Origin: Dehalococcoidia bacterium
GTDB lineage: Bacteria > Chloroflexota > Dehalococcoidia > Lucifugimonadales > UBA3495
Assembly: GCA_965204905.1 (NCBI GenBank)
Contig: OZ242042.1
Span: 1,282,778 to 1,346,777 of the forward strand
Direction: 5' to 3'
Length of the DNA: 64,000 bases
Shown here: positions 9,262 through 63,840 of the stretch, in pieces
How the letters are laid out: each line of letters starts with the position of its first letter
Position numbering within the stretch: position 1 is the first letter of the stretch
Position numbers and translations under genes: made by a program
Notes under the pieces: model-generated
Databases searched by the model: none
Told to the model about the DNA's origin: nothing
What the model saw: the letters and a program-made list of their open reading frames with translations, nothing else

Positions 9262-10461
9262 ATGAGCGAAATCACCGGCAACGGAACTGCGCCAACCCCG
9301 ACGGTTCCCAGCGTGTACGGCGACGACGGAGTGACCATCATCGGCATGATCGGTGTGGTGCGTGAAGCCGCCGCCAACCAGGGCGCGACCCTCAGCCTCT
9401 TCGGAGGAGGCATCAATCCCGGGGCCGAAGTCCCCTCCGGCGTTGATCCCGACTACATACTCGATTTCGCCCGGACCCACGAAGACGCCGGGTTCGATAT
9501 GGTGTTGACCGGCTACTCATCGTCAACCCCCGACGGTTTTGAAGTCGCCGGCTACGCCGCCGCGCACACCGACCGACTGGGCTACCTGATCGCCCACCGG
9601 CCCGGCTTCGTCGCGCCGACGCTGGCCGCCCGCAAAGCCGCCACTTTGGACCAGCTAACCAACGGACGTATCGCGCTGCACATCATCACCGGCGGCAACG
9701 ACGTTGAGCAGCGGCAGGATGGCGACTGGCTCGACCACGATGCCCGCTACCGCCGCACTGACGAGTACCTGTCAGTAATGCGCCGCATCTGGACCGAACA
9801 CGAGCCCTTCGACCATGAGGGTGAGTTCTACCGTTTTCAGGACGCCTACAGCCAGGCGAGGTGTCGCCAGCAACCCCACGTCCCTCTGTTTTTCGGCGGC
9901 GCTTCCGACATCGCGCTGGACGTTGCCAGCCGCCGCGCGGATCTTTTCGCGCTGTGGGGAGAACCTCGCGCTTCCATTGCACAACGCATCGCAGACGTTA
10001 AAAGCCGCGTTGCTGCCGCCGGCCGGGATCCGTCTGAAATTCGATTCAGCCTGTCGGCCCGTCCTATCCTGGCTGACACCGAGGAAAGGGCCTGGGAACG
10101 CGCGGACCGCATCCTGGCCAGCATCAAGCAAGCCACCGCCGGCCGAATCACGCCGGGCGTACCCACGCGCCCGCAGTCCGAAGGGGCGTGGCGTCTGCTG
10201 CGCTTTGCCGCAGAGGGCAATGTCCACGACGAACGGCTCTGGATGCCGATAGCCGCTGCCAGCGGCGCATCCGGCAGCACCACTTGCCTGGTCGGTACGC
10301 CTCGCCAGGTCGCCGATTCGTTGCTGGCGTACTACGATCTCGGCTGCACCGCGTTCATCATCCGCGGATTTGATCCCCTTGCCGACGCCGCCGATTATGG
10401 CGGAGAGCTCATCCCCCTCGTCCGCGAAGGAGTCGCGGCGCGGCGCAAGAGGTGGGTATGA
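9262..10461 (+). CDS. LLM-class (luciferase-like) flavin-dependent oxidoreductase
   Basis: 399-aa ORF. TIM-barrel LLM signature region (RLGYLIAHRPGFVAPTLAARKAATLDQLTNGRIALHIITGG, RYRRTDEYLSVMRRIWT). Confidence 0.85.
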   Translation: MSEITGNGTAPTPTVPSVYGDDGVTIIGMIGVVREAAANQGATLSLFGGGINPGAEVPSGVDPDYILDFARTHEDAGFDMVLTGYSSSTPDGFEVAGYAAAHTDRLGYLIAHRPGFVAPTLAARKAATLDQLTNGRIALHIITGGNDVEQRQDGDWLDHDARYRRTDEYLSVMRRIWTEHEPFDHEGEFYRFQDAYSQARCRQQPHVPLFFGGASDIALDVASRRADLFALWGEPRASIAQRIADVKSRVAAAGRDPSEIRFSLSARPILADTEERAWERADRILASIKQATAGRITPGVPTRPQSEGAWRLLRFAAEGNVHDERLWMPIAAASGASGSTTCLVGTPRQVADSLLAYYDLGCTAFIIRGFDPLADAADYGGELIPLVREGVAARRKRWV

Positions 10462-13185: not shown

Positions 13186-14409
13186 CTAATTCCCAACCGC
13201 TTCCGCGGTTTCGGACTTGAGCTTCTCCGGCCACCACGGGTCATCGTATTCGTTGAACAGACCCTTCATGTGGGGCATAACCTCGTTGGCGAACAGGTCT
13301 GTGTTCTTCTTGACCAGTTCCGGCGGCATACTGCCGATTTGCAGCAGCACCATCAGGTGGCCGATCCGCAGCAACTCGCAGGCTTCGGTAAGCTTGCGCC
13401 GTACGGTTTCGGGGCTGCCGCCGATAACGTGTCCCTGCTCGATGTAGTCTTTCCAGCTGTTTTCCTTGGCCGTCCGCTGGGCCTCTTCGCCCATCTGGGG
13501 CCGCAACGACTTGCGGATGGAATCCAGCGAACGATAACCAGGGGATTCGGCGAATGGCGGGTACACGCGCAACATCTTTTCGTAGAAGTACTTGACGTGT
13601 TCCTCGTAGTCCTGCTCCGCCTGCTCGTCGGTCTCTGAAACGCAGACCAGTTGTAGGAATCCTAAGCGGTGCGGGTTGTCGTCAATGCCCCGCTCGGCGA
13701 CCCGTTCCCAGTAGCCCTTCACGATGTTGTGCCCGCGCAGGTAACCGTAGTAGGACAGGTAGCAGTACACGTAGTCCCGGTCCAGCACCCAGTCCCACGT
13801 CTCCAGGCTGCCGGATCCGGGCACCCAAACCGGCGGGTGCGGCTCCTGCATGGGCCGTGGCCAGATACTGATGTAGCGCAGCTTGTTGTATTTGCCGTTG
13901 AAAATCGTGGGATGGTGCTGTGTCCAGGCTTGCATGACCACATCATGAGCCTCGGTGTGCCGGTCGCGCAGTGTGATCGGAACCTGACCGTATGAGAACG
14001 TCGTGTCCATGGACGTCCCCACCGGGAACCCGGCTACTAGTCGTCCGCCCGAGATAACGTCAATCATCGCCATCTCTTCGGCGACACGGACCGGAGGGTT
14101 GTAGAGCGCCAGGCTGTTGCCCAGCACGATCACGGCGCCGTTGTTGGTGCTGTTGGCCAGTACCGAGGCGATGAGGTTGGGCGACGGCATGATGCCGTAG
14201 GCGTTGTTGTGGTGCTCGTTGACGCAAATTCCATCGAAACCCACCTCGTCGGCGTACCGCAACTGGTCGATGTATTGAGCGTAATACTCGTTGCCTTTGG
14301 CGGGATCGAAATTCTCGTTAGGCAGATCAACCCAGGCGGAATGATGCTGCTCGGCGAAATCGTCGGGCAGGTCCTGGTAGGGCATCAGGTGGAAAAAGGA
14401 AACTTTCAT
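13186..14409 (-). CDS. LLM-class flavin-dependent oxidoreductase
   Basis: 407-aa ORF. MKVSFFHLMPY..., EVGFDGICVNEHHNNAYG and GGRLVAGFPVG are typical of the luciferase-like monooxygenase family. Confidence 0.9.
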   Translation of the reverse strand: MKVSFFHLMPYQDLPDDFAEQHHSAWVDLPNENFDPAKGNEYYAQYIDQLRYADEVGFDGICVNEHHNNAYGIMPSPNLIASVLANSTNNGAVIVLGNSLALYNPPVRVAEEMAMIDVISGGRLVAGFPVGTSMDTTFSYGQVPITLRDRHTEAHDVVMQAWTQHHPTIFNGKYNKLRYISIWPRPMQEPHPPVWVPGSGSLETWDWVLDRDYVYCYLSYYGYLRGHNIVKGYWERVAERGIDDNPHRLGFLQLVCVSETDEQAEQDYEEHVKYFYEKMLRVYPPFAESPGYRSLDSIRKSLRPQMGEEAQRTAKENSWKDYIEQGHVIGGSPETVRRKLTEACELLRIGHLMVLLQIGSMPPELVKKNTDLFANEVMPHMKGLFNEYDDPWWPEKLKSETAEAVGN

Positions 14410-14478: not shown

Positions 14479-15069
14479 CTACTGCGCCGGGCTGGCCGGC
14501 GGGGGGAAGAGATCGGTCACCGGGCAGGCGAAACCGGGCAATACGGGTTCTGCGGTGACGGTATCGCTGTAGCGGAACACCGTGGCCCGATCGGGCCACA
14601 GCGCAATGATAGTGCGATGTGGGGGGATTACCAGCCAAACCAGTTGCACTCCAGCCGCGAAGTATTCCTCCACCTTGTCCCAAACGTCCAGCGTCATATT
14701 GTTGGGAGAGATGACTTCCACCGCCATTATGGGCACCAGAGCCAGGATTGCTTCCGGGCCCGTAGGAAGATCGCCTTCTAAGACCGCCAAGTCAGGACGT
14801 CGAGTGCGGTTACGGTTTGCGCCTACGTCGAACAGAGCTTCCGCGAAAACTCTAATCGGAAGGCGATTTTCCGTCCGCTGTTCCAAAGCCCGCCATATAA
14901 GACGAACCACCTCGGCGTGAATGAGCATCTCCGGTGTCATGCCCATTTCATCACCATCCCACACGTGCTTTTTGACGATGCGGCCATCAAGCAACTCGCA
15001 GCCTCGGGTAATGTCTCTGGGCAGGGCAACGAATTCTTCCCAAGAGTACAGCTGTTCGGTGGTAGTCAT
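14479..15069 (-). CDS. Uma2-family (DUF820) PD-(D/E)xK nuclease-fold protein
   Basis: MTTTEQLYSWEEFVALP...CELLDGRIV...RPDLAV...AVEVISPNN...KVEEYFAAGVQLVWLV...LPGFACPVTDLF. A TTG at 15114 is an alternative start. Confidence 0.8.
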   Translation of the reverse strand: MTTTEQLYSWEEFVALPRDITRGCELLDGRIVKKHVWDGDEMGMTPEMLIHAEVVRLIWRALEQRTENRLPIRVFAEALFDVGANRNRTRRPDLAVLEGDLPTGPEAILALVPIMAVEVISPNNMTLDVWDKVEEYFAAGVQLVWLVIPPHRTIIALWPDRATVFRYSDTVTAEPVLPGFACPVTDLFPPPASPAQ

Positions 15070-15110
15070 CTGAACGCCCCGAATATTAGCGTGTGCCGGC
15101 GAAGCAGAGA

Positions 15111-15953
15111 TCAACCCGCGAGCCAGTTCTTGACCGCCGCGATGAAGTCAGCGGGGTTGTCCTCGAAGACCATGTGCCCGGCTCGCTCGATTTCCACCAG
15201 AGTGCCCTGCGCCAGCGTGTCGATCATCTGCCGCGCCGTTTCTTCGGTCAGCAGGTCGGTTTCCGTGCCGCGTACCACCAGCGTCGGGCAGACGATGCGT
15301 TCCAGGGCCGGCCATAGATCCGCCGCTGGCGCCGCCGTGCCGTTGATGCGCTGTTCTCGGATGGCCGGATCAAATTTCCAACCGATTTTGCCGTCGGAGG
15401 TTTCGTAAGTCTGCCCGCCCAGGCGTCGCCGCATAACCGATTCGGACGCGAACCGGTTGCCGGTCTGGACGTGGGCCAGGGCGTCCTCGAAGTTGTCGAA
15501 CTGGGGCGGCAAGCTCCGCAGTTCCTCGGTGATCCGGTTCCCGCCCGCCGGTTCGATGCGCGGGCCAATGTCCACAATGCAGAGACGCTCCAGTCGTTCC
15601 GGATTTTCGCCGGCGAAGGCCATGCTGTTCCGGCCGCCCATGGAATGGCCAAATAGGATGAACTTGTCCAGCCCTATGGCGTCCACGAATCCAGCGAGGT
15701 CTGCGACAAAGGCGTCGGTGGAATAGTCGCCGCCCGGAGCGTGGTCAGTGTCGCCCCGGCCTCGCTGGTCAAGAGCATACACGTGGTAGTCGCCGCATAG
15801 CGCTTCTGCCACGTCTTCCCAAACTCGGGCGTGGCCGCGCAGTCCGTGCAATAGCACTAGGGGCGGAGCGCCCTCTGCGCCCCATTCCAGGTAGTGAATG
15901 TTGATTCCGTTGGCGGTCAGAGTTTTGCTGCTGGGTTGTACCTGTGTGGTCAT
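15111..15953 (-). CDS. alpha/beta-fold hydrolase
   Basis: 280-aa ORF. HGLRGHARVW, nucleophile elbow GHSMGG, C-terminal GHMVFEDNP. Confidence 0.85.
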   Translation of the reverse strand: MTTQVQPSSKTLTANGINIHYLEWGAEGAPPLVLLHGLRGHARVWEDVAEALCGDYHVYALDQRGRGDTDHAPGGDYSTDAFVADLAGFVDAIGLDKFILFGHSMGGRNSMAFAGENPERLERLCIVDIGPRIEPAGGNRITEELRSLPPQFDNFEDALAHVQTGNRFASESVMRRRLGGQTYETSDGKIGWKFDPAIREQRINGTAAPAADLWPALERIVCPTLVVRGTETDLLTEETARQMIDTLAQGTLVEIERAGHMVFEDNPADFIAAVKNWLAG

Positions 15954-18501: not shown

Positions 18502-19119
18502 TTGATGCTCACGCCTGCCCCAGATATTGACCCTGCCGATTGCGGGCCCATGCTCGCGGGGTTGAGCGCTCCTTTGGCGGCTGTGTCAGTCCGTTCAGGC
18601 GACATCGTAAATGCGCAGATCGCGGTGGCAATCACCGCCGCATCTATCGTTATTCAGCGCCCCCGGTTGATCGTTCAGATCTACCATACCAATTACACGC
18701 ATGATCTCATCGCCGCCAGCGGAGTTCTCGCCGTCAACTTCCTGAACCAGGGACAACTGCCGCTGATCTGGGAGTTGGGGATGCGGTCAGGGCGTGATTC
18801 CGATAAGCTCGAGGATGTTCCGTACACAACCGGAGTAACCGGCAGTCCTCTGCTGGAAGGTTGTTTTGGCTATCTCGACTGCAGCGTCGTTAACGCCATG
18901 GATGGTGGCGATATGACTGCGTTCCTGGTGGAAGCGCTGCTGGCCGAAACCATTGGTGGAGAACGCATGACGTGGCGGGATGCGCGCCCGCGACTGCCTC
19001 AGCGATGGGCTGAAGAGTGGGACCGCAAAATCGCGGGCGAAATGGACGTTTCGTTGGCGAACATGGGCCAGATTGACCCAGCGGCGTGGGCCAGCCTGAC
19101 CAGTACCCTGCCCCGCTAG
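18502..19119 (+). CDS. flavin reductase-like (FMN-binding split-barrel) protein
   Basis: 205-aa ORF. SGVLAVNFL...SGRDSDKL...SPLLEGCFGYLDCSVV matches the Flavin_Reduct domain pattern. Confidence 0.7.
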   Translation: MMLTPAPDIDPADCGPMLAGLSAPLAAVSVRSGDIVNAQIAVAITAASIVIQRPRLIVQIYHTNYTHDLIAASGVLAVNFLNQGQLPLIWELGMRSGRDSDKLEDVPYTTGVTGSPLLEGCFGYLDCSVVNAMDGGDMTAFLVEALLAETIGGERMTWRDARPRLPQRWAEEWDRKIAGEMDVSLANMGQIDPAAWASLTSTLPR

Positions 19120-24869: not shown

Positions 24870-25457
24870 ATGACTACCCAAACGCGCAAAATTACCGTGG
24901 ATGAGTTCTGGGAGATGGCCGCCGACCCCGGCCATCGCTACGAACTGGTCGATGGAGAACTGGTTGACATGGATGGCGCTCCCAGACACGGCAGGATGAC
25001 AGGCCACATATTCGTATTGGTTAACAGCCACATTACGCTGAACGATTTGCCGCTGGACGCTGGTGTCACTACGGGTTTCCAGATGGACCCTTATACCTTG
25101 AGAGTCCCGGATGTTCATGTCACCCGGTGGGACCGGATGGCAGAATATGACGAGGATGCTGGCGGCTGGCCTCGATTCGCGCCCGATGTGGCGATTGAAG
25201 TGGTGTCCCCCAGCAACACGCCGGCTGAGCTGGCCCGCAAAACCGAGGAATATTTCGCCAACGGGGCGCAGGCCGTTTGGATTGCTGACCCGGTTCCCCG
25301 TACCGTGGCGATCCGCCGCCCCGTTGCGCCGGAGCAGGTTTTCGGCGTTGGTGATGTCTTGACCGGCGAACCGGAAATACCCGGATTTACTTGTGATGTC
25401 GCCGAAATTTTCGCTATCCTGGACCGGATGCCAAAGCCCGGCGCAGAAGGTAACTGA
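24870..25457 (+). CDS. Uma2-family (DUF820) PD-(D/E)xK nuclease-fold protein embedded in the nuo operon
   Basis: ITVDEFWEM...YELVDGELV...VPDVHV...APDVAIEVVSPSN...KTEEYFANGAQAVWIAD...IPGFTCDVAEIF. Lies 47 nt after nuoH and 2 nt before nuoI. Confidence 0.8.
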   Translation: MTTQTRKITVDEFWEMAADPGHRYELVDGELVDMDGAPRHGRMTGHIFVLVNSHITLNDLPLDAGVTTGFQMDPYTLRVPDVHVTRWDRMAEYDEDAGGWPRFAPDVAIEVVSPSNTPAELARKTEEYFANGAQAVWIADPVPRTVAIRRPVAPEQVFGVGDVLTGEPEIPGFTCDVAEIFAILDRMPKPGAEGN

Positions 25458-42715: not shown

Positions 42716-42738
42716 ATCCACAGGAACAATCACGAAAC

Positions 42739-42767
42739 GTAGGGGCGGGTTTCAAACCCGCCCCTAC
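42739..42767. repeat. 29-nt perfect hairpin GTAGGGGCGGG-TTTCAAA-CCCGCCCCTAC between convergent genes
   Basis: 11-bp stem. A sister copy lies at 56700-56728 (GTAGGGGCAGG-TTTCAAA-CCTGCCCCTAC, compensatory change). Confidence 0.85.
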
Positions 42768-42792
42768 GAATTGGGCCAATCGTCGGCGTCGT

Positions 42793-43335
42793 TTACCTAT
42801 CCACCAGACACGCAATCGCCTGTGGCGCGGCCGTTGCCGCGCGTTCCGACAGTTCGGAGTCGTTGAGGGTGACGATGGGGTGCTCTACGATGGCCAAGCC
42901 GTACTCCGGGTCGCCGCGCATCCGGGACATGGCGTGCGCCTGGCTGATGAACGGACGGGTGGTCAGCACGGTTGAGGGGATGCCCAGCAGTTCGGTTTCC
43001 ATTGCGTCGTGCACACTGCACGCGGTGCAGGACCCTCATTCAGCCGTGGCGTGTATCGCTACGTCAATGCTCTTGGCGGTGCGTTGCAGGTCCTCAATGC
43101 GGGCCGGCCACTGCCAGCCGCCCTTGTTGTGCTCAACGGTGCCGGCGATGTCGTAACGCTCGCCGATGATGGCGGCGATACGTCGCAGCAGGTCTTCCGA
43201 GTGGGGCTTGTTGTTGGCGAACAAGCCGATTACCTTGCCGTCCAGAGTCGCCGGCCGTTGCGCCAGGCGCGCCGGAGCCTGCGGCCCGTCGTCGCGGGGG
43301 TCCAGCGTCACGATTGGTGAGTTCTGCATTGTCAT
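42793..43335 (-). CDS. UGSC-family protein, probable selenoprotein (Sec at the in-frame TGA 43036-43038)
   Basis: ORFs 43036..43380 and 42793..43014 are in the same frame, separated only by a TGA. Read-through gives ...SIDVAIHATAE-U-GSCTACSVHDAMETELLGIPSTVLTTRPF..., that is the U-G-S-C motif. Likely start MTMQNSP at 43335 (GAGGAG SD). Confidence 0.75.
43006..43033 (-). promoter_or_regulatory. candidate bacterial SECIS hairpin immediately 3' of UGA 43038-43036
   Basis: The mRNA reads UGAGG-GUCCUGCAC-CGCGUGCAGU-GUGCACGAC. Eight base pairs with one C.C mismatch and a 10-nt loop containing GU. Confidence 0.35.
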
Positions 43336-43392
43336 AGCATTTTCTCCTCGACGTGTAGTGACAATCCTGTTGCTCAGCATTTTTCCGGCCGC

Positions 43393-43767: not shown

Positions 43768-44769
43768 CTAGCTCGGCACGTTCACCCGCCGAGTTACTGA
43801 CCGGCTGCTGCCCCAGGTGCTGATGAGGCTGACGAATCCGCCGGCCATGCCGCCGCCCGGCAGGACGGTGATGCGGTCGGCGTCGGCTACCACTGGGACC
43901 ATGCGGTCGTGGTCCAACTCGTGGCCCATGCGATGCCAGCGCATCCACTCGGCTACCGGGAGCTGGGCCTTTTCGTGCAGGAACTCCGCCACTCGCTGCC
44001 GCGACCAACCCGCCTCAGCGATGTGCAGCATGGCCTCCGGGCTAATGACGCAGATTACCTCCGGCATTCCGGGGCCGAAGGCCAGCATCGAGTGGGCCAC
44101 GGTGGTCAGAAAGTCCGCGGGATCCCGGTCGCCGTGCAGAGTGACCTGCAAGGGCCCCAAGGTGGCGTAGGCGGTCACTATCGTCGCGTCGTCGCCGTAG
44201 CCCAGTTCCGAGGCCAGCGACGGCCAGGGGCTGATCGCCAGGTTCTCGGGGAAGCAGAACGTGATCTTGCCGGGATGTCCGAAGGTGCTGTTGTCCATCA
44301 CCACCGGAACCGACCCGTAGAAGTTGGCCTTGAACAGGTTGACCGCCCGGCCGATAGCGGCGTTGGCCCGGCTGCCGTTGCCCATCATCTCGACACCACC
44401 GTTCATGCCGATGGCGTCGGCGTAGGGGCCGCTGACCACTGTCAGCACCGTTACGCCGTTGGTGGACGTGCTGCTGGCGTGCAGGTTGAACGAGCGGTCG
44501 GCGATGGCGGACAGGGATGCCAGCACCACCGGAAAGTGCTCGGGAGTGCAGCCGGCCATCACTGCGTTGACCGCCGCCTTGCCGGCCGTGAACCGCTTTT
44601 GCCGAATTACCTCGGTGCCCAGGTCGTGCTCGGCGGACACGCCGGCGTAGTCCAGCATCGCCTGCACCCGATCCTGGGTCGGCGGTACGATGGGCAGGCC
44701 GTCGGTGAGGCCGTTGTCAAAGTAGTAGTCCTGAGCGGCGCTCCAGTCGTCGAAACTATGTGTGGTCAT
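43768..44769 (-). CDS. conserved-looking hypothetical protein, family not recognised
   Basis: About 333 aa from MTTHSFDDWS. Globular and non-repetitive (GLTDGLPIVPPTQDRVQAMLDY, AVNAVMAGCTPEHFPVV, GNGSRANAAIGRAVNLF). First gene of the cassette ending in the UGSC gene. Confidence 0.6.
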   Translation of the reverse strand: MTTHSFDDWSAAQDYYFDNGLTDGLPIVPPTQDRVQAMLDYAGVSAEHDLGTEVIRQKRFTAGKAAVNAVMAGCTPEHFPVVLASLSAIADRSFNLHASSTSTNGVTVLTVVSGPYADAIGMNGGVEMMGNGSRANAAIGRAVNLFKANFYGSVPVVMDNSTFGHPGKITFCFPENLAISPWPSLASELGYGDDATIVTAYATLGPLQVTLHGDRDPADFLTTVAHSMLAFGPGMPEVICVISPEAMLHIAEAGWSRQRVAEFLHEKAQLPVAEWMRWHRMGHELDHDRMVPVVADADRITVLPGGGMAGGFVSLISTWGSSRSVTRRVNVPS

Positions 44770-44826
44770 AAAGTAAAGCTCTCTCAAAATGGATTGGCGG
44801 TTCAGATTATGCCAGCATTTGGTTGC

Positions 44827-44856
44827 AGGGGCGAATAATCATTTGCCCCTACGCAT
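44827..44856. repeat. AGGGGC-GAATAATCATTT-GCCCCT(ACGC) hairpin element overlapping the 3' end of the DnaC-like CDS
   Basis: Stem 44827-44832 / 44845-44850. The DnaC-like stop (44839-44841) lies in the loop, and the last residues (MRRGK) are encoded by the element. Confidence 0.7.
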
Positions 44857-46254
44857 TGCGCCGCCCTGCCGGTAATCGGGCGCTTCTATCGGCCACTCGG
44901 TCACTACCAGAGGGTCTTGCAGGCGGGACGCGATGCGTGGGCGGGTGGCAGCGATGTCCTCGATCCTGTGGGAGGTTGTGATGATGGTCGGGAGCCGTTC
45001 CTCGTATCGATAGCCTACTATCTGGAACAGTTTGTCCTCGGCGAAAGGAGTGCTGCGTTCGGCTCCCATGTCGTCCAGCACCAAGACGTTGGCGGTCCTG
45101 ATACGATCCAGCAGGTCCTCGTGGGCTATTGGACTATCCGGGGCGAAAGCGGCACGCAAGTAATCGAGCAAATCCGCCACGGTCGCAAAAAATACTTCGT
45201 CGCCCCGGTCTTCGCGCTCGGCGGCGGCGGCCACCGCCAGGTGGGTTTTCCCTACACCAAACGGCCCGTGCAGGCTCAGCCATCCGTTGGGTTGGTTAGC
45301 CCAACGCTGCACGTAGGATTTTGCCGAGCTAAGGCTGCGTATTTCGTGCGCCGCCAGATCACCGTTGCCTTCCGGGTTGAAAGCCTCAAACGTCATACGC
45401 TGTCGCATACTAGTTGGAATCATTCCCATCGTGCGTCCGATAGCGCTGTTGACGCGGCCCAGGCGGTAAATGCGCCCGAAACCGTCGGCAGATTCCATGC
45501 GCGTCAGCAAGAACTCGTCAAGGCGATTCGGATCTCCTCGTAGTGTGATCACCGTCGGCAATCTTTGTGAATGGCGCCACGCTAACAGCTGGAACAGCCG
45601 CTCTTGTCCCCACGGACTGGCAGGACGGGCCGGCAAGTCGTCCAATACCAGCAAATCGGCCTGACGCACCTGCTCGAAAAGGTCGATGAATCCTAACTCC
45701 GAGTCATCGTCAAAACCACCGCGCAGATAGTCCAGCAGGTCAGTGGAGGTTATGAACAGCGCAGCCTTGCCGTTGTCGATGCGCCGGTTGACGATGGCGG
45801 CGGCCAGGTACGTTTTTCCGCTGCCGCTGGGCCCGACGAAAGTTATCCAGCCTTGTGGATCTGCGGCGAATTCGCGCGCCGCCTGAAACGCGCTGACAAA
45901 CGCGGCCCGGTTGGCTGATTCGTTATTCGGGCCGTTGGGATCGCTGTTGGCAAAGGTCCATTGGCGCAGGGCTCCCAGGTTGCTGTACCGTTCCAACGCC
46001 GCCACGCGCCTGGCCCGGTCAGTATCGGACTCCTGGCACTGGCACGGAACCGCTTTGCCAAAATCGGGATGCTCAACCGGCGTTCTCGACGCGAGCCAGC
46101 CGGCGCCGCCGCATACGTTGCAACTGTCAGCCGCCGTTTCCGTCCGGGACGTTGTCAGGCTCCCAAGGTAGCCGTCCGTATCGGCGTCGATAGCTCTCCA
46201 GGTACCCTGTGCGGCGATCCGGCGCAGTATCGTGCCCAAGCTCTCCATCGTCAT
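44839..46254 (-). CDS. DnaC/DnaI/IstB-like helicase-loader ATPase with two tandem AAA+ modules and an N-terminal Cys4 motif
   Basis: 471-aa ORF. CNVCGGAGW...VPCQC; Walker A GPSGSGKTYLAAAI plus Walker B LLVLDDL; then a second Walker A GPFGVGKTHLAVAA plus Walker B VLVLDDMG. Confidence 0.75.
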   Translation of the reverse strand: MTMESLGTILRRIAAQGTWRAIDADTDGYLGSLTTSRTETAADSCNVCGGAGWLASRTPVEHPDFGKAVPCQCQESDTDRARRVAALERYSNLGALRQWTFANSDPNGPNNESANRAAFVSAFQAAREFAADPQGWITFVGPSGSGKTYLAAAIVNRRIDNGKAALFITSTDLLDYLRGGFDDDSELGFIDLFEQVRQADLLVLDDLPARPASPWGQERLFQLLAWRHSQRLPTVITLRGDPNRLDEFLLTRMESADGFGRIYRLGRVNSAIGRTMGMIPTSMRQRMTFEAFNPEGNGDLAAHEIRSLSSAKSYVQRWANQPNGWLSLHGPFGVGKTHLAVAAAAEREDRGDEVFFATVADLLDYLRAAFAPDSPIAHEDLLDRIRTANVLVLDDMGAERSTPFAEDKLFQIVGYRYEERLPTIITTSHRIEDIAATRPRIASRLQDPLVVTEWPIEAPDYRQGGAMRRGK

Positions 46255-46954: not shown

Positions 46955-48340
46955 CTACGCCACCGATTCTTCGTAGCGCATCAACTCGTCAAATCGCATC
47001 AGGGTGTCGCGGAAGTACAGGTGGAGGCTGCCAGTTGGGCCGTGCCGGTGCTTGGCTACGATAAGTTCCGCGATGTTGCGGGGGTACGGACGACCCGGGG
47101 CGTGCTGCTCCCATTCGTCCTCCGTGAAGTTTCGGTCTTCCCGGTAGATGAACATAACCACGTCGGCGTCTTGCTCGATGCTGCCGCTGTCGCGCAGGTC
47201 GGACAATTGCGGGCGATGGCCCGGCCGGTTCTCCACCACGCGGCTCAGCTGGGAGCAGGTGAAAACCGGAACTTCCAGGTCCCTGGCCACGGCCTTTAGC
47301 GACCGCGAAATCTCGCTGATTTCCTGGACCCGGTTTTCGCCGTATCCGCGCCGGCTGCCCTGTCCCTGCGCCAGTTGGAGGTAGTCCACCACCAGGAAGT
47401 CCAAGCCGTGCTCCAGTTTCAGCCGCTGCGCCTTGCTGCGCATTTCCATGGCAGTCTGGAACGGGGTGTCGTCAATAAAGATGGGCAGGCCGGAAAGCAC
47501 ACCCACCGCGTTGGCGATGACGCTCTCTTCCTGCTCCGACAGCAAGCCCAGGCGCAGCCGGTGGGAATCCACGCCCGACTCGGCCACCAATATGCGCATC
47601 GCCACCTGTTCCCGGCTCATCTCCAGGCTGAAAATCCCGCACACCTGACCGCTCTTGGCGGCGTTCACGCAGATGTTCAACGCCAGGCTGCTTTTGCCGA
47701 GGCCGGGCCTCGCGCCCACGATCAGCAGATCCGACCGTTGCATCCCGCCCAGCAGGCTGTCCAGGTCGCTGTAGCCGCTTTGCAGGGGCGGCATGTCGGT
47801 CAGTGAAACGTCGCCGATGTCCCCCTGGAGGTACACGTCCAGTACCGAGCTCAACGGAATGAAGCCCCGCTCGGTGTTCGCCGGCTGCACGCTGAACAGG
47901 ACGTCCACCGCTTGCCGCATAGCGTCCTCGGCATCGTCCGAGTCCTCGAATCCGATCTCGGCAATTCGATTGCCGGCCGCAATGATGCGCCGCTTGGCGG
48001 CGGTGTCGGCCACGATGCCGGCGTAATACTCCACGTTGACCGACGTGGGGGTATCGGCGATCAACTGCCCCAAGTAAGGCAGGCCACCCACCTCTTCCAG
48101 CCGGTTCCGTTGCTGCAACTCCCGCGCTACCGTGATCTGGTCAACGGCCTCGCCTCTTTGGGACACCGAGACGCAGGCGTCAAAGCAGAACTGATTGCGC
48201 GCCCGGTGAAAATCCTCCGCCTTGATCAGGGGCAGCACCCGGTGCAGGGCCTCGCCGTCAATCAGCAATCCCCCTAGAACCGCCGCCTCTGCGTCGAGGT
48301 CGTGCGGAGGTTGTCGCTCGATGTACTGGGCGACGACCAC
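46955..48340 (-). CDS. dnaB: replicative DNA helicase
   Basis: 461-aa ORF. PPHDLDAEAAVLGGLL, Walker A GARPGLGKSS, FLVVDYLQL, SQLSR. No intein. Confidence 0.96.
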   Translation of the reverse strand: MVVAQYIERQPPHDLDAEAAVLGGLLIDGEALHRVLPLIKAEDFHRARNQFCFDACVSVSQRGEAVDQITVARELQQRNRLEEVGGLPYLGQLIADTPTSVNVEYYAGIVADTAAKRRIIAAGNRIAEIGFEDSDDAEDAMRQAVDVLFSVQPANTERGFIPLSSVLDVYLQGDIGDVSLTDMPPLQSGYSDLDSLLGGMQRSDLLIVGARPGLGKSSLALNICVNAAKSGQVCGIFSLEMSREQVAMRILVAESGVDSHRLRLGLLSEQEESVIANAVGVLSGLPIFIDDTPFQTAMEMRSKAQRLKLEHGLDFLVVDYLQLAQGQGSRRGYGENRVQEISEISRSLKAVARDLEVPVFTCSQLSRVVENRPGHRPQLSDLRDSGSIEQDADVVMFIYREDRNFTEDEWEQHAPGRPYPRNIAELIVAKHRHGPTGSLHLYFRDTLMRFDELMRYEESVA

Positions 48341-56118: not shown

Positions 56119-56703
56119 ATGACGCAACCCAAAGCAAAGCCGCGTACCAAGTTGACCAACGCGGACTATATGGCGATGACGCCGCCGGCGAACACGGGGC
56201 CGCGCTACCAACTTATCAACGGGGAGCTGATTCAGATGGCCGGAGCTAGTGACGCTCATCAAGTGTTCCTGATGTGGTTGTGCTCGGCACTGATGTCGCA
56301 GGTGTATGCTTTGGTCATAGGCGAAATCCGCATTGCCGCATACGACGTACACGTTGACCCTTTCAACACTTTCCAGCCCGACCTGCTGTACGTGTCCAAC
56401 GAACGGCAACACATTTTCAACGTCGATGGCCGCGGCATTACCGGCGCGCCGGACGTGGTAGTGGAGATATTGTCTGAGTCCACCCGGCGGCGGGATCTCA
56501 GCGAGAAGTTGCCCGTTTATCTCAACGCCGGCGTCAAGGAAGTCTGGGTTGTCGATCTGGATGCCGCCACAGTGGCAATCCACTCTGGAGATGCCATGAC
56601 TCCTGTGGCTGTGTTTGCCGCTGAGGATACACTGACCTCGGATGCGATGCCCGGTGTTGCAATTGAGTTGGCGCCAATTTTCGCACGCGCAGTTGGCGTG
56701 TAG
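56119..56703 (+). CDS. Uma2-family (DUF820) PD-(D/E)xK nuclease-fold protein
   Basis: YQLINGELIQM...QPDLLYV...APDVVVEILSEST...KLPVYLNAGVKEVWVVD...MPGVAIELAPIF. Confidence 0.8.
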   Translation: MTQPKAKPRTKLTNADYMAMTPPANTGPRYQLINGELIQMAGASDAHQVFLMWLCSALMSQVYALVIGEIRIAAYDVHVDPFNTFQPDLLYVSNERQHIFNVDGRGITGAPDVVVEILSESTRRRDLSEKLPVYLNAGVKEVWVVDLDAATVAIHSGDAMTPVAVFAAEDTLTSDAMPGVAIELAPIFARAVGV

Positions 56704-59364: not shown

Positions 59365-59931
59365 AGAACGGAAAAAGTGGCCGAGCACCTCCCGTTGACT
59401 ACAGCCTGGGGGCATATCGTCGGGACTGGCTCAGGCCAGGCGCTCCCACGGCGCCCGCGGGACATCGCTTACCGTTGCTGCCGTCAAGCCCTGGCGGAGT
59501 TCACGAGCCTGCGCCGCGTGGGACCCGGCCGTCAACGCCACTCCCTGGGAAATTGGCCCTTGCGCCTTGCCGAGGGGAGGAATTCCACCCCGCTGTGGCG
59601 GGTTGCGGGTATAGGGCACCGCCAGCTCCCCGTGTAGCACGACCACTGCAAACATGGTATGCGGGCATGGGCTGGGTGTCAAACGCCGGCGGCGCCGGGC
59701 GATTGTTCAGAGTTGGGGTACTCCGGTCACGGGGCAGACTGTTCTTGTGCGGAATGATGATTTGGGTCAGCGGGTGGTTTTGGGGTTCCTCCGATTTGAG
59801 CGATTGGGTTTTGGGATTTTTCGGTGTCAGGTTGGTGGTTCGGGTCGAGTGTCGGAGCACGGCCAACACTATTTTTTTGCAGAGTTTGCGTCCTAGATTT
59901 CCACGTGCTGGCCGTTGCCCCGCTCCGCCGG

Positions 59932-60250: not shown

Positions 60251-60583
60251 TCAGTGTGCGCTGTCGTCATGCAACGACGGTTCAATCAGCAGGCGCAGGT
60301 CCAGAGCGCGGGCGATTTTCAGCACAGTTGCGAAGGACGGGTTGCCTCCGGTCGAGAGAGCCTTGTACAGCTCTTCCGGGGTCGTGCCCGCCGCTTTGGC
60401 CAGGTGGGCCATGTTTCGTTCCTGAACCTGCGCGATGTCGCCCAGCGCGGCGCGGATCATGCTGCCGTCGCCAGTGTCTTCCGCGACGGCGGCTTCCAAG
60501 TAATAGTGGATGTCCTCAGGAGTCTTCAGATAGTCGGACAGATTCCAGCGTTTCAATTCCTTTCCGGTGAGTTCCTCAACCAT
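60251..60583 (-). CDS. addiction-module antidote protein (HigA-like, XRE-type HTH; TIGR02684-like)
   Basis: 110-aa ORF. SDYLKTPEDIHYYLEAAVAEDTGDGSMIRAALGDIAQ, then an HTH (MAHLAKAAGTTPEELYKALSTGGNPSFATVLKIARALDLRL). Confidence 0.8.
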   Translation of the reverse strand: MVEELTGKELKRWNLSDYLKTPEDIHYYLEAAVAEDTGDGSMIRAALGDIAQVQERNMAHLAKAAGTTPEELYKALSTGGNPSFATVLKIARALDLRLLIEPSLHDDSAH

Positions 60584-60589
60584 CGCGTA

Positions 60590-60883
60590 TCACCTCCATT
60601 CCTGCGCCAGTTCTTTGGCTCGGCTGATGTCGCGTTCCTGGCTGTCCTTGTCGCCCCCGTAGAGCATGACGATCATGGTGGGACCGCGTCGGAGGAAGTA
60701 GAGCCGATAGCCCGGCCCATAGTGGATACGCATTTCGGATACGCCGTCGCCCACTGGGGCAACATCGCCGAAGTTGCCTTCCGTGGCCCGCTGCAGACGA
60801 AACTGGATTCTGCCTACGGCCCGCCGGTCGCGCAGGCGACGCAACCACCGCTCGAATTCCGGGGTCACCTGGACTTCGATCAT
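60590..60883 (-). CDS. addiction-module killer protein (RelE/ParE superfamily; TIGR02683-like)
   Basis: 97-aa ORF. TPEFERWLRRLRDRRAVGRIQFRLQRATEGNFGDVAPVGDGVSEMRIHYGPGYRLYF...YGGDKDSQERDISRAKELA. Confidence 0.85.
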   Translation of the reverse strand: MIEVQVTPEFERWLRRLRDRRAVGRIQFRLQRATEGNFGDVAPVGDGVSEMRIHYGPGYRLYFLRRGPTMIVMLYGGDKDSQERDISRAKELAQEWR

Positions 60884-60962: not shown

Positions 60963-62789
60963 TTACTGGCAAAACTCCAGGCCAAGCCGATGCAAGTCGT
61001 TCACCACTACCGTCTGTAATCCCGGCGGTACGCACCCCGTCAACTGGTTGCCTCCTAATTGCAGAAGCCACAGTTCCGAGAGGCTGCCCAGCTCTGCCGG
61101 AATCGCTCCGGTCAGCAGGTTGTCATACAGGAACAGCCGCTCTACGTTTGTGAGTTGACCCAGCTCTGCCGGGATCTCCCCGGTCAGAAGGTTTTTCGAA
61201 AGACTCATGAAGGCCAAGTTTGAGAGAGCGCTCAACTCCACCGGTATAGGTCCACTCAGTGCGTTCCTGCTCAGGGCAAGTTGTTCCAGGTTTGAAAGAT
61301 CTCCCAACGTGATAGGTATCACGCCATTCAGGCGGTTCCCATCGAGGTCCAGTCTTTTTAGGTTTGATAAATCGCCGAGCTCCGCCGGGATCGGTCCGTC
61401 CAATTGATTGTAATCCAACTCCAACCGCTCCAGATTGGAAAGATTCCCCAACTCAGAAGGTATCGCGTCGCTCAGCTGATTGCCACCGAGGTACAACTCT
61501 TCTAGGTTCGAAAGGTTGCCCAATTCCGCCGGAATCGCTCCGCTGAACTGGTTGAAACTGGCGTTGAGATACGTCAAACCGTCGAGCATCCCTAGTGCTG
61601 TTGGAATTTCTCCGCTCAATTGGTTGTCATACAGGCGCAACCGTTCCAAGTTGGCAAGATTACCTAACTGAGCAGGAATGGGGCCGCTCAGTTCGTTGCC
61701 AAAAAGACGCATATCCTGCAAGTTAGACAGGTCGCCCAGTTTAGCGGGAATCGGACCGTTCAACTGGTTATTGCCAAGACTCAAGTAGGTCAGACTGGCG
61801 AGGTTGCCTAGCTCTGCCGGGATCGGTCCGCTCAACTGGTTGCTGTATAGATCCAGCGATTCTAAGTTGGCTAGATTGCCCAACTCGATGGGGATCGTCC
61901 CGCTTAACCGGTTGTCATACAGGCTCAACTGTTCCAGGCTAATGAGGTTGCCCAGCTCTGCCGGTATCGGCCCGCTCAGCCGATTATCGTTTAGGCTCAG
62001 GCGGGTCAAGTTGGTGAGATTCCCCAGATCTCCCGGTATCGGCCCTTCTAACCGGTTTCCCCAGAGCCTGAGATTGGTCAAATCCGTCAGGTTGCCCAGT
62101 TCCGATGGTATGGGCCCGCTCAACTGGTTGGAGTTGAGGTCCAGGGAGGTCAAGTTAGCCAAGTCACCTAATGATGCTGGAATTTCACCTTCCAACCGGT
62201 TGCGATACAGGCCAAGCCAAGTTACGCAACCGTCTCTGCTGGCGCCTACCCCAACCCACGTGTCCACCGGGTAGTCGCTCAGCCAGTTGTCTTTCCTCAA
62301 CCAATCGTCTCCGTCAGTGGCGTTGTAAAGTTCCACCAGCACGTCCCGGTCTCCGGCGCACGCCTCGCTGACACCAACCGCAAATGGACCAAACCACGAC
62401 GGCGCCCATTGCGGTTCACTGTAGCGCGTCTCGCTGCTGGCTACTGTGAAATAGTAGGGTTCGCCCACCGTGAGGTTCTTCACCGTATAGGTAGTTTGAC
62501 CTAGATTCTCAACGCTAGCCATTTGCATGGCATCCCGCCAGTCCCGTCCTTCACTGACCACCGCTCGGACATTGTCCGCAGTGGCCCAAGCGATACGATA
62601 AAATCCGGCCTCAGGTACTGCGTTCCAACTAACGATTACCTCGCCAGGGTTGTCGCCGTTTTCCACCGTCGGAGTATCGGGGGCGGCGAGTCCGCCGCCG
62701 TCCTGTGCTGTAACCGACGTCGTGCTTCCGCCGGCGATGGACAACGCGACAACTAGTAAAAGGGCAACCGCTATAGCTGGGTATTTCAT
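60963..62789 (-). CDS. secreted leucine-rich repeat protein (signal peptide + FN3-like domain + about 17 plant-type 24-aa LRRs)
   Basis: 608-aa ORF. MKYPAIAVALLLVVALSIAGG, then repeated LxxLxxLxLxxNxLSGPIPAELGNLxN units (72-bp DNA periodicity). Confidence 0.85.
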   Translation of the reverse strand: MKYPAIAVALLLVVALSIAGGSTTSVTAQDGGGLAAPDTPTVENGDNPGEVIVSWNAVPEAGFYRIAWATADNVRAVVSEGRDWRDAMQMASVENLGQTTYTVKNLTVGEPYYFTVASSETRYSEPQWAPSWFGPFAVGVSEACAGDRDVLVELYNATDGDDWLRKDNWLSDYPVDTWVGVGASRDGCVTWLGLYRNRLEGEIPASLGDLANLTSLDLNSNQLSGPIPSELGNLTDLTNLRLWGNRLEGPIPGDLGNLTNLTRLSLNDNRLSGPIPAELGNLISLEQLSLYDNRLSGTIPIELGNLANLESLDLYSNQLSGPIPAELGNLASLTYLSLGNNQLNGPIPAKLGDLSNLQDMRLFGNELSGPIPAQLGNLANLERLRLYDNQLSGEIPTALGMLDGLTYLNASFNQFSGAIPAELGNLSNLEELYLGGNQLSDAIPSELGNLSNLERLELDYNQLDGPIPAELGDLSNLKRLDLDGNRLNGVIPITLGDLSNLEQLALSRNALSGPIPVELSALSNLAFMSLSKNLLTGEIPAELGQLTNVERLFLYDNLLTGAIPAELGSLSELWLLQLGGNQLTGCVPPGLQTVVVNDLHRLGLEFCQ

Positions 62790-62880: not shown

Positions 62881-63840
62881 TCATGCCCGGAAATGGGGCA
62901 CGATGTCCTTGGCGATTACTTCCAGGTGGCGGCGGCGGTCTTCCCGGGGCGCCGCGATGCTGAAGACGATGTACCGCGCGCCGGCGTCGATGTATTCCTG
63001 CAACCGCTCGATGCACATTTTCGGGGTTCCCAGCAGGCAGTATCGCCGCACGATGCTGATGAATTCGCCGCCGTAGAGGTATTGATTTCCGAGGGCTTCC
63101 GCCGCCGTCCGCGCTGCCTGCTCTTCGGTGGGCGCGATGTTGATGTAGGGGAAGAACGCCCACTGGAACTCCGTGAGATCGCGCCCCGACTCGGCGGCGA
63201 ACTCGCCAATTTTGGCCACGCTGTCCCGGTATCGCTCCGGACTGTAAAAGTACGGGAGCCAGCCGTCGCCATAGCGCACGGCCCGTCGCATTGCGGCGTC
63301 CCGGCGGCCGGCCACCCAAACCGGCGGGTGGGGCTTTTGGGCCGGCTTGGGGTTGATGGCGGCTTCATCCAGCGTGTAGTGCCGGCCCCGCATGGTCACC
63401 CCGTCCTCCGTCCACAAGCGGCGCAGCCCGTCCAGGCATTCGTCCGTGCGCCGGCCCCGGCCTCGGGTGTCGATACCGGCGTTCTCGTACTCCATGGGGA
63501 ACTCGCCGCCCACGCCGACCCCCAGCGTCAGCCGTCCGCCGGATGCAATATCCAGCGTCGCCGTCATCCGCGCCAGCATCAGCGGATGATAGAACGGGGC
63601 CAAAACTACCGACGACAGGATACGCATCCGTTCCGTGGCGCCGGCGGCCACTGCCAGCAGAGGCAACGCCGCGTGGGTCGGTCCGGGAGGCCGGCCGCGC
63701 ATGAAATGCTCTCCCGCGCCCATGTACTCAAAGCCCAGGTCTTCCATCAACCTGGCTTGCTCAACCGTGCGGTCTGCTGGGAGCGCCATGCTGGCCCCAA
63801 AATGCAGATCATTGTTATTGACCGATGTATTTGATGGCAT
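62881..63840 (-). CDS. LLM-class (possibly F420-dependent) oxidoreductase
   Basis: 319-aa ORF. EDLGFEYMGAGEHF, SGGRLTLGVGVGGEF, and RYIVFS near the C-terminus. Confidence 0.85.
   Translation of the reverse strand: MPSNTSVNNNDLHFGASMALPADRTVEQARLMEDLGFEYMGAGEHFMRGRPPGPTHAALPLLAVAAGATERMRILSSVVLAPFYHPLMLARMTATLDIASGGRLTLGVGVGGEFPMEYENAGIDTRGRGRRTDECLDGLRRLWTEDGVTMRGRHYTLDEAAINPKPAQKPHPPVWVAGRRDAAMRRAVRYGDGWLPYFYSPERYRDSVAKIGEFAAESGRDLTEFQWAFFPYINIAPTEEQAARTAAEALGNQYLYGGEFISIVRRYCLLGTPKMCIERLQEYIDAGARYIVFSIAAPREDRRRHLEVIAKDIVPHFRA

Follow-up and report, generated by a model that had tools for sequence, protein, structure and literature searches.

UGSC-containing proteins form a selenoprotein family that is already well established. 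In the GOS metagenomes it ranked among the most abundant such families, with 255 selenocysteine (Sec) forms counted against 21 Cys forms (Zhang and Gladyshev; PMC2398784). The same 2008 paper suggested a thioredoxin-like fold for the protein and reported its fusion to an unknown domain, "Unknown_1" (PMC2398784). The family is also named in later reviews, and is covered by the profiles Pfam PF24696 and NCBIfam NF041046 ("UGSC family (seleno)protein"). It is a very abundant selenoprotein family of aquatic metagenomes, and functionally uncharacterised.

The second point of reference is the bacterial SECIS, the RNA hairpin that accompanies a Sec codon. In Escherichia coli, nucleotides G23 and U24 of this element (counting the U of UGA as 1) contact SelB, and U17 also has a role. 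Searches of the bSECISearch type look for an apical loop containing a G roughly 16-37 nt from the UGA. For comparison we used the E. coli fdhF SECIS sequence, which was matched at 100% identity in the fdhF gene of 5419 E. coli genomes. This element folds with an apical loop at nt 22-25 and a 3' arm running from U26 to C30.

Measured against these systems, a minus-strand stretch of the 64,000-nucleotide sequence analysed here (the window) constitutes one UGSC gene of a SAR202-like Dehalococcoidia bacterium, in which the UGA at codon 100 very probably encodes Sec, as predicted from sequence comparison (Table 1). The gene is new and unannotated, while the UGSC selenoprotein family itself was already known. 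The finding confirms known biology and is not a new kind of system. What is added here is a corrected start codon, a comparatively supported SECIS pairing, a conserved partner gene, and a fold prediction that is not thioredoxin-like.

Table 1. Features of the UGSC locus in window coordinates. Nucleotide (nt) numbers count the U of the UGA as 1, such that nt n lies at window coordinate 43039-n.
Feature	Position	Strand	Remarks
UGSC-family (seleno)protein gene, complete	42793..43335	-	180 codons + TAA; codon 100 = UGA; from translation and PF24696/NF041046 matches
UGA in frame, predicted Sec codon (U of the UGSCTAC motif)	43036..43038	-	
GAGGAG, Shine-Dalgarno-like	43344..43349	-	8 nt upstream of ATG 43335; read from the sequence
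SECIS-like element	43003..43029	-	nt 10-36; lower stem 10-12:34-36; upper stem 17-22:26-31
Upper hairpin C	43008-43022	-	6 bp, nt 17-31; triloop G23 U24 G25 = 43014-43016
Predicted transcription terminator (likely)	42738..42768	-	14-bp G+C-rich hairpin, then GUUUCGUG; 25 nt past the UGSC stop
Partner gene, 339 aa, uncharacterised	43768..44787	-	upstream neighbour of the UGSC gene, same strand
ORF, 122 aa	43393..43761	-	between partner and UGSC genes; in L014 and L041 only (2/84 loci)

The gene is spread over two minus-strand open reading frames that share one frame, 43036..43380 (114 aa, with the TGA at 43036-43038 as its last codon) and 42793..43014 (73 aa). Translation from 43335 to 42793 yielded 99 residues, a stop, and a further 80 residues (...SIDVAIHATAE*GSCTACSVHDAMETELLGIPS...LVDR), ending at a TAA (42793-42795). 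The predicted peptide across the junction reads ...SIDVAIHATAE-U-GSCTACSVHDAMETELLGIPSTVLTTR. Judged from the sequence context, ATG 43335 is most likely the start codon rather than ATG 43380, since it has the Shine-Dalgarno-like GAGGAG upstream and since the N-terminal pieces of homologs begin at the equivalent ATG and, with few exceptions, have a length of 99 aa; the product would then be 180 aa. An earlier note, made from the letters alone, had described two same-strand frames parted by a TGA, a read-through sequence of ...VAIHATAE-[UGA]-GSCTACSVHDAMETELLGIPS..., and a protein of about 180 aa. Our coordinates and retranslation reproduce all three.

Downstream of the stop codon, the hairpin of the predicted terminator folded at -34 kcal/mol over a 71-nt segment (z=-4.4), and none of 200 shuffled sequences folded as well (0/200). 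The UGSC and Gfo/Idh/MocA genes converge on this hairpin, which probably serves as a terminator in both directions. A simple terminator scan did not flag this hairpin, owing to its weak U tract.

Family membership was established by scoring the read-through protein, with Cys in place of the UGA-encoded residue. PF24696 was matched at 143 bits (E=1.3e-41; gathering cut-off, 25 bits), with residues 11-178 aligned to profile positions 3-171 of 172, which is effectively full length. The N- and C-terminal pieces alone matched profile positions 3-90 and 94-171. Likewise, NF041046 was matched over positions 1-146 of 147 (E=2e-31), with the two pieces corresponding to the two halves of the model. By these matches, the protein lies inside the family at the Pfam level and is divergent from the NCBIfam seed. 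The UGA falls where the U/C-G-S-C motif begins (AE-[UGA]-GSCTAC). Both this placement and the assignment to a selenoprotein family described from marine metagenomes had been proposed in the earlier note. The full-length PF24696 match and the Cys-containing homologs bear out the former, and the matches to PF24696 and NF041046 together with the published description (PMC2398784) bear out the latter.

The locus resembles the described UGSC family (PF24696; NF041046; PMC2398784) in its full-length profile match, its U-G-S-C motif at the same column, the large excess of Sec over Cys forms, its uncultured aquatic hosts, and its link or fusion to the unknown domain "Unknown_1". It differs in that its score against NF041046, obtained with Cys replacing Sec, falls below the equivalog cut-off (109 versus 125 bits), and in that the Dehalococcoidia/SAR202 subfamily carries AE-U-GSCTAC rather than GD-C-GSC. 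The stretch around the Sec codon (residues 88-139) also showed weak, local matches to models of GrdB, GrdF, and PrdB (TIGR01917, NF040794, and TIGR04483), selenoproteins of the glycine, sarcosine, and proline reductases that bear a UxxC-type motif. However, the E values were only 0.09-0.16, far short of the cut-offs, and no GrdA/PrdA-type context was present. The UGSC protein is also much smaller, and sequence and fold searches of the PDB gave no support. We regard this similarity as a lead, with no relationship established.

Conservation of the UGA was assessed at 84 related loci, four from contig look-ups and 80 from a scan in which each species was represented by a single genome. The latter were all Dehalococcoidia, SAR202, or Chloroflexota metagenome-assembled genomes (MAGs), many of them closed chromosomes. 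TGA was present at the Sec column in 84/84 loci (55-96% identical), each followed by an in-frame, highly conserved 80-residue continuation that ended at a stop shared by all. More distant split genes (36-60% identical) also carried TGA (L085, L086/87, L088, L089, L090, L091, and L094), as did both UGSC copies of L093. The contig of L092 begins just past this column and gives no reading there. After the UGA, dN/dS was 0.04-0.22 (78 codons; window versus 12 loci), as low as in the 68 codons that precede it. To split an ordinary Cys gene, one change of TGC or TGT to TGA would suffice, whether by pseudogenization or by an assembly or sequencing error. Yet the same TGA recurs in all 84 independent assemblies, which include closed chromosomes from different projects, and strong purifying selection acts on both halves. 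These observations render such an origin vanishingly unlikely.

Translation across the UGA was further supported by the codons that immediately follow. Seven codons separate the UGA from the GTG "start" of the second frame and, among these, codons +1 (GGN) and +4 (ACN) showed synonymous variation only, which indicates that the gap is translated. This bears on a model in which the UGA terminates and ribosomes re-initiate at GTG 43012-43014, producing pieces of 99 and 73 aa that assemble non-covalently. Exactly these two pieces are called in every public assembly, and a GTG, ATG, or TTG is kept eight codons past the UGA in many lineages. The conserved GUG is nonetheless accounted for by an RNA hairpin (see below), and re-initiation would sever the U/CxxCxxC redox motif from both pieces. 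In addition, each homolog of the Cys form is one uninterrupted protein in which C-G-S-C spans the junction. Together with the synonymous variation between UGA and GTG, these points make re-initiation exceedingly unlikely. The view expressed in the earlier note, that the 73-aa piece merely begins at a GTG inside a continuous conserved sequence, agrees with the behavior of codons +1 and +4 and with the dN/dS values.

How the family appears in databases reflects the same UGA. Among 5.8 billion predicted proteins, the matches recovered were almost all 99 aa long, as the gene calls were cut at this codon while the DNA runs on in frame. Universal termination of homologs at this position had been named in the earlier note as an outcome that would speak against a selenoprotein; such 99-aa calls were indeed seen, but the underlying DNA continues in frame throughout. 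As that note had also anticipated for ordinary gene callers, the gene is truncated in public assemblies, where a pair of "hypothetical proteins" (99 aa and about 70 aa) stands in its place. This mis-annotation affects essentially all public assemblies of these Chloroflexota, which are abundant in aquatic habitats, such that the selenoproteomes and selenium demand of SAR202-type bacteria are under-counted.

An exhaustive HMMER search with the C-terminal piece recovered many full-length relatives of ~175-190 aa. The Sec column was read in 40 distant full-length homologs and contained Cys in 38 (as GD-C-G[SAG]C), Ser in one, and Gly in one. The closest Cys-form gene (encoding P0123, at locus L095) has TGC at this column, forming a Sec/Cys pair with the window gene. 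Hence the question of whether homologs carry Cys or Sec at the UGA column and continue past it was answered by Cys in 38/40 of these proteins, with sequence continuing beyond.

UGA retains its usual meaning elsewhere in the window. TGA closes 28/68 long ORFs, clearly real genes included, which rules out an altered genetic code. Four other in-frame TGA candidates in the window proved to be adjacent genes or were without support. One of the four consists of two minus-strand ORFs at 60251-60883 (97 aa and about 110 aa) that lie in the same frame, with a TGA and one codon before the ATG. On visual inspection they resemble a toxin of the RelE/ParE type and, after it, an HTH antitoxin, and were rejected as a selenoprotein because they are two adjacent genes.

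Codon usage directly 3' of the UGA points to a conserved RNA element. Among 81 distinct sequences, codon entropy was ~0 at codons +2, +3, and +5 to +9, compared with 1-2 bits where these amino acids recur in other parts of the UGSC gene. The frozen codons were TCC (80/81), TGC (79/81), GCG (68/68), TGC (81/81), AGT (81/81), GTG (81/81), and CAC (80/81). Judged from this pattern, the constraint acts at the level of RNA and not protein.

Three overlapping hairpins can form within this element: A (9-14:18-23), B (6-8:31-33 plus 10-14:25-29), and C (17-22:26-31). Single-sequence folding of 63-nt and 49-nt segments gave C, while a 41-nt segment gave B. None was significantly more stable than shuffled sequences (63 nt, z=+0.88; 41 nt, -13.6 kcal/mol, z=-0.3). 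As no fold beats its shuffles and the three hairpins overlap, thermodynamics alone cannot pick the SECIS.

Comparative analysis favored hairpin C. RNAalifold applied to 44 distinct sequences returned a consensus in which C stands on a lower stem of 3 bp (10-12:34-36), a structure with 98.7% of cells paired. Pair 18:30 was compensatory, being C-G instead of G-C in L086 and L088; the covariation for hairpin C thus comprises one pair in two related sequences. Hairpin A is broken in L086 and L088 and was set aside. Hairpin B was 92.6% paired, showed no covariation signal, and was set aside in favor of C. B is the 8-bp hairpin (43006-43033) proposed in the earlier note. It can form, and is the minimum free energy structure of the 41-nt segment, but its pairing is not favored by comparison. 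The broader proposal of a SECIS-like fold with a GU-containing loop directly 3' of the UGA holds as a conserved element, though not in its exact pairing.

More distant Sec forms retain the stem of hairpin C despite a different 5' flank, with loops of GUA, GUU, or UGUAU. The Cys-form gene at L095 is without hairpin C, and forcing its sequence into this structure costs +2.7 kcal/mol. The original suggestion of a probable UGSC selenoprotein is accordingly strengthened by three observations: TGA in 84/84 loci, the Sec/Cys pair, and an RNA element that is absent from the closest Cys form.

The element has the features sought in a bacterial SECIS stem-loop, namely a hairpin (nt 17-31) that follows the UGA directly and has a G23 U24 N25 loop. 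No Rfam family matched it at gathering or relaxed thresholds. Like the fdhF SECIS of E. coli, it is a hairpin within the ORF that begins just past the UGA and carries G23 and U24 in its apical loop. The two also share a 3' arm (U26-G27-C28-A29-C30) at equal distance from the UGA and an upper stem of UGCA:UGCA. Unlike the fdhF element, which has a GGUC tetraloop, the window element has a GUN triloop. It is without the bulged U17, its lower stem is only 3 bp, and SelB binding to it is putative. Under the standard bacterial mechanism, SelB carrying Sec-tRNA(Sec) would bind this coding-sequence stem-loop directly 3' of the UGA, using the upper stem (nt 17-31), the G23-U24 triloop, and the short lower stem. 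SelB would then deliver Sec to the UGA at codon 100, which would be read as Sec and not as a stop.

The Sec machinery itself was sought in the window. A tRNA search and Pfam searches of ~50 ORFs found no selA, selB, selD, or tRNA-Sec in the 64 kb, and the tRNA search found no tRNA of any kind in the window. Two Dehalococcoidia MAGs encode a Sec biosynthetic system, with 46 and 49 selenoprotein genes (PMC13326102), which places the Sec trait in this class; by analogy, we infer its presence in the source genome. The absence of the machinery from the window would suit read-through of the UGA as a residue other than Sec, for instance Cys, if tRNA(Sec) were mis-charged, or Trp, through near-cognate suppression. 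Against this, many genes of the window end normally at TGA, and the UGA is accompanied by a conserved SECIS-like hairpin that is gone where the codon is TGC. Moreover, UGSC is an established selenoprotein family (PMC2398784), and members of the Dehalococcoidia are documented Sec users (PMC13326102). We consider non-Sec read-through very unlikely.

Insight into the fold of the UGSC protein was obtained from an AlphaFold model of P0123, the closest Cys-form homolog (pLDDT 89.7). The model is a five-stranded parallel α/β domain of a Rossmann or flavodoxin-like type. It gives no support to the thioredoxin-like fold suggested in 2008 (PMC2398784). In this model, the Sec-equivalent Cys100 lies directly past strand 3, at the point where helix 101-116 starts, in a P-loop-like position. 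Such a helix-cap placement, as modelled, would suit a redox nucleophile of low pKa. Comparison with the PDB returned generic Rossmann/flavodoxin-like folds only (TM <= 0.47).

The UGSC gene has a conserved neighbor. The 339-aa partner gene is the same-strand upstream neighbor in 81/84 loci, while other neighbors vary. It keeps this upstream place in the distant loci of the Sec form and in that of the Cys form, and the stop and start codons of the two genes sometimes overlap. The partner belongs to a large family (>4600 matches), with no Pfam or NCBIfam family match. Its invariant features are Cys80 and the motifs NLHASSTSTNG and FGHPGK. An AF2 model of the partner (pLDDT 82.7) had no convincing match in the PDB (TM <= 0.31). 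PDB sequence and fold searches with the UGSC and partner models gave generic or low-TM matches only. The 122-aa ORF that separates the two genes in the window, which likewise had no Pfam or NCBIfam match, is probably an insertion outside the UGSC/partner module given its sporadic occurrence. A different arrangement was seen on one metagenomic contig (L093:193-2202), where a 349-aa partner-like gene is flanked by two UGSC genes, both Sec-containing.

The two proteins also occur fused. P0159 combines a NifU-like domain, a Cys-form UGSC domain, and a partner homolog in one polypeptide, the last being 36% identical to the partner over 333 residues (E=5e-48). This is probably the "Unknown_1" fusion of the 2008 paper (PMC2398784). 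In other Cys-form fusions, the UGSC domain is joined either to a Pyr_redox_2 domain resembling thioredoxin reductase (P0136) or to NifU-like CxxC domains (P0164 and P0411). Taken together, the four fusions hint at a redox or Fe-S-related role. The pairing and fusion with the 339-aa partner, the Cys-form fusions to thioredoxin-reductase-like and NifU-like domains, and the confident prediction of a non-thioredoxin fold provide handles on the function of this family.

From this genomic context, we tentatively propose that the UGSC protein could be a selenol/thiol redox carrier that acts with the 339-aa partner. In its U-G-S-C-T-A-C motif (UxxCxxC), Sec would form a selenenylsulfide with C103 or C106. 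The likely redox partner would be the 339-aa upstream protein with its invariant Cys80, the two forming a two-gene module. A more specific proposal, to which we give somewhat less credence, is that the pair might be a dedicated two-component selenoenzyme, in which the Rossmann-like UxxCxxC domain passes reducing equivalents to an active site in the partner. The partner has the invariant Cys80 and NxH/GHPGK motifs. The source of the equivalents could be an enzyme resembling thioredoxin reductase, on the pattern of the P0136 fusion. Were this so, the near-total preference for Sec over Cys in the clade would reflect chemistry that needs selenium.

The remainder of the window is ordinary chromosome, with a nuo operon and genes for enolase, GAPDH, DnaB, luciferase-like monooxygenases, and others. 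Three genes encode luciferase-like, flavin-dependent monooxygenases (9262-10461, plus strand; 13186-14409 and 62881-63840, minus strand), and a flavin reductase gene is located at 18502-19119. These genes and the nearest related loci are consistent with an origin in a SAR202-type Dehalococcoidia. Three genes of the Uma2 family (putative restriction endonuclease-like) were found at 14479-15114 (-), 24870-25457 (+), and 56119-56703 (+), one of them within the nuo operon between the NADHdh (nuoH-like) and 4Fe-4S (nuoI-like) genes. A 471-aa protein encoded at 44839-46254 (-) has two tandem AAA+ modules of the DnaC/IstB/DnaA type and a Cys-rich N-terminal segment. Its gene adjoins those of a DnaB helicase (46955-48340) and a DnaD-like protein, an arrangement kept in relatives (L001). 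The sole Rfam match in the window was a bacterial large SRP RNA (RF01854, 138 bits) at 59381-59642 (-). Finally, a 608-aa protein encoded at 60963-62789 (-) combines an fn3 domain with numerous leucine-rich repeats, an unusual make-up in a bacterium that lives freely.
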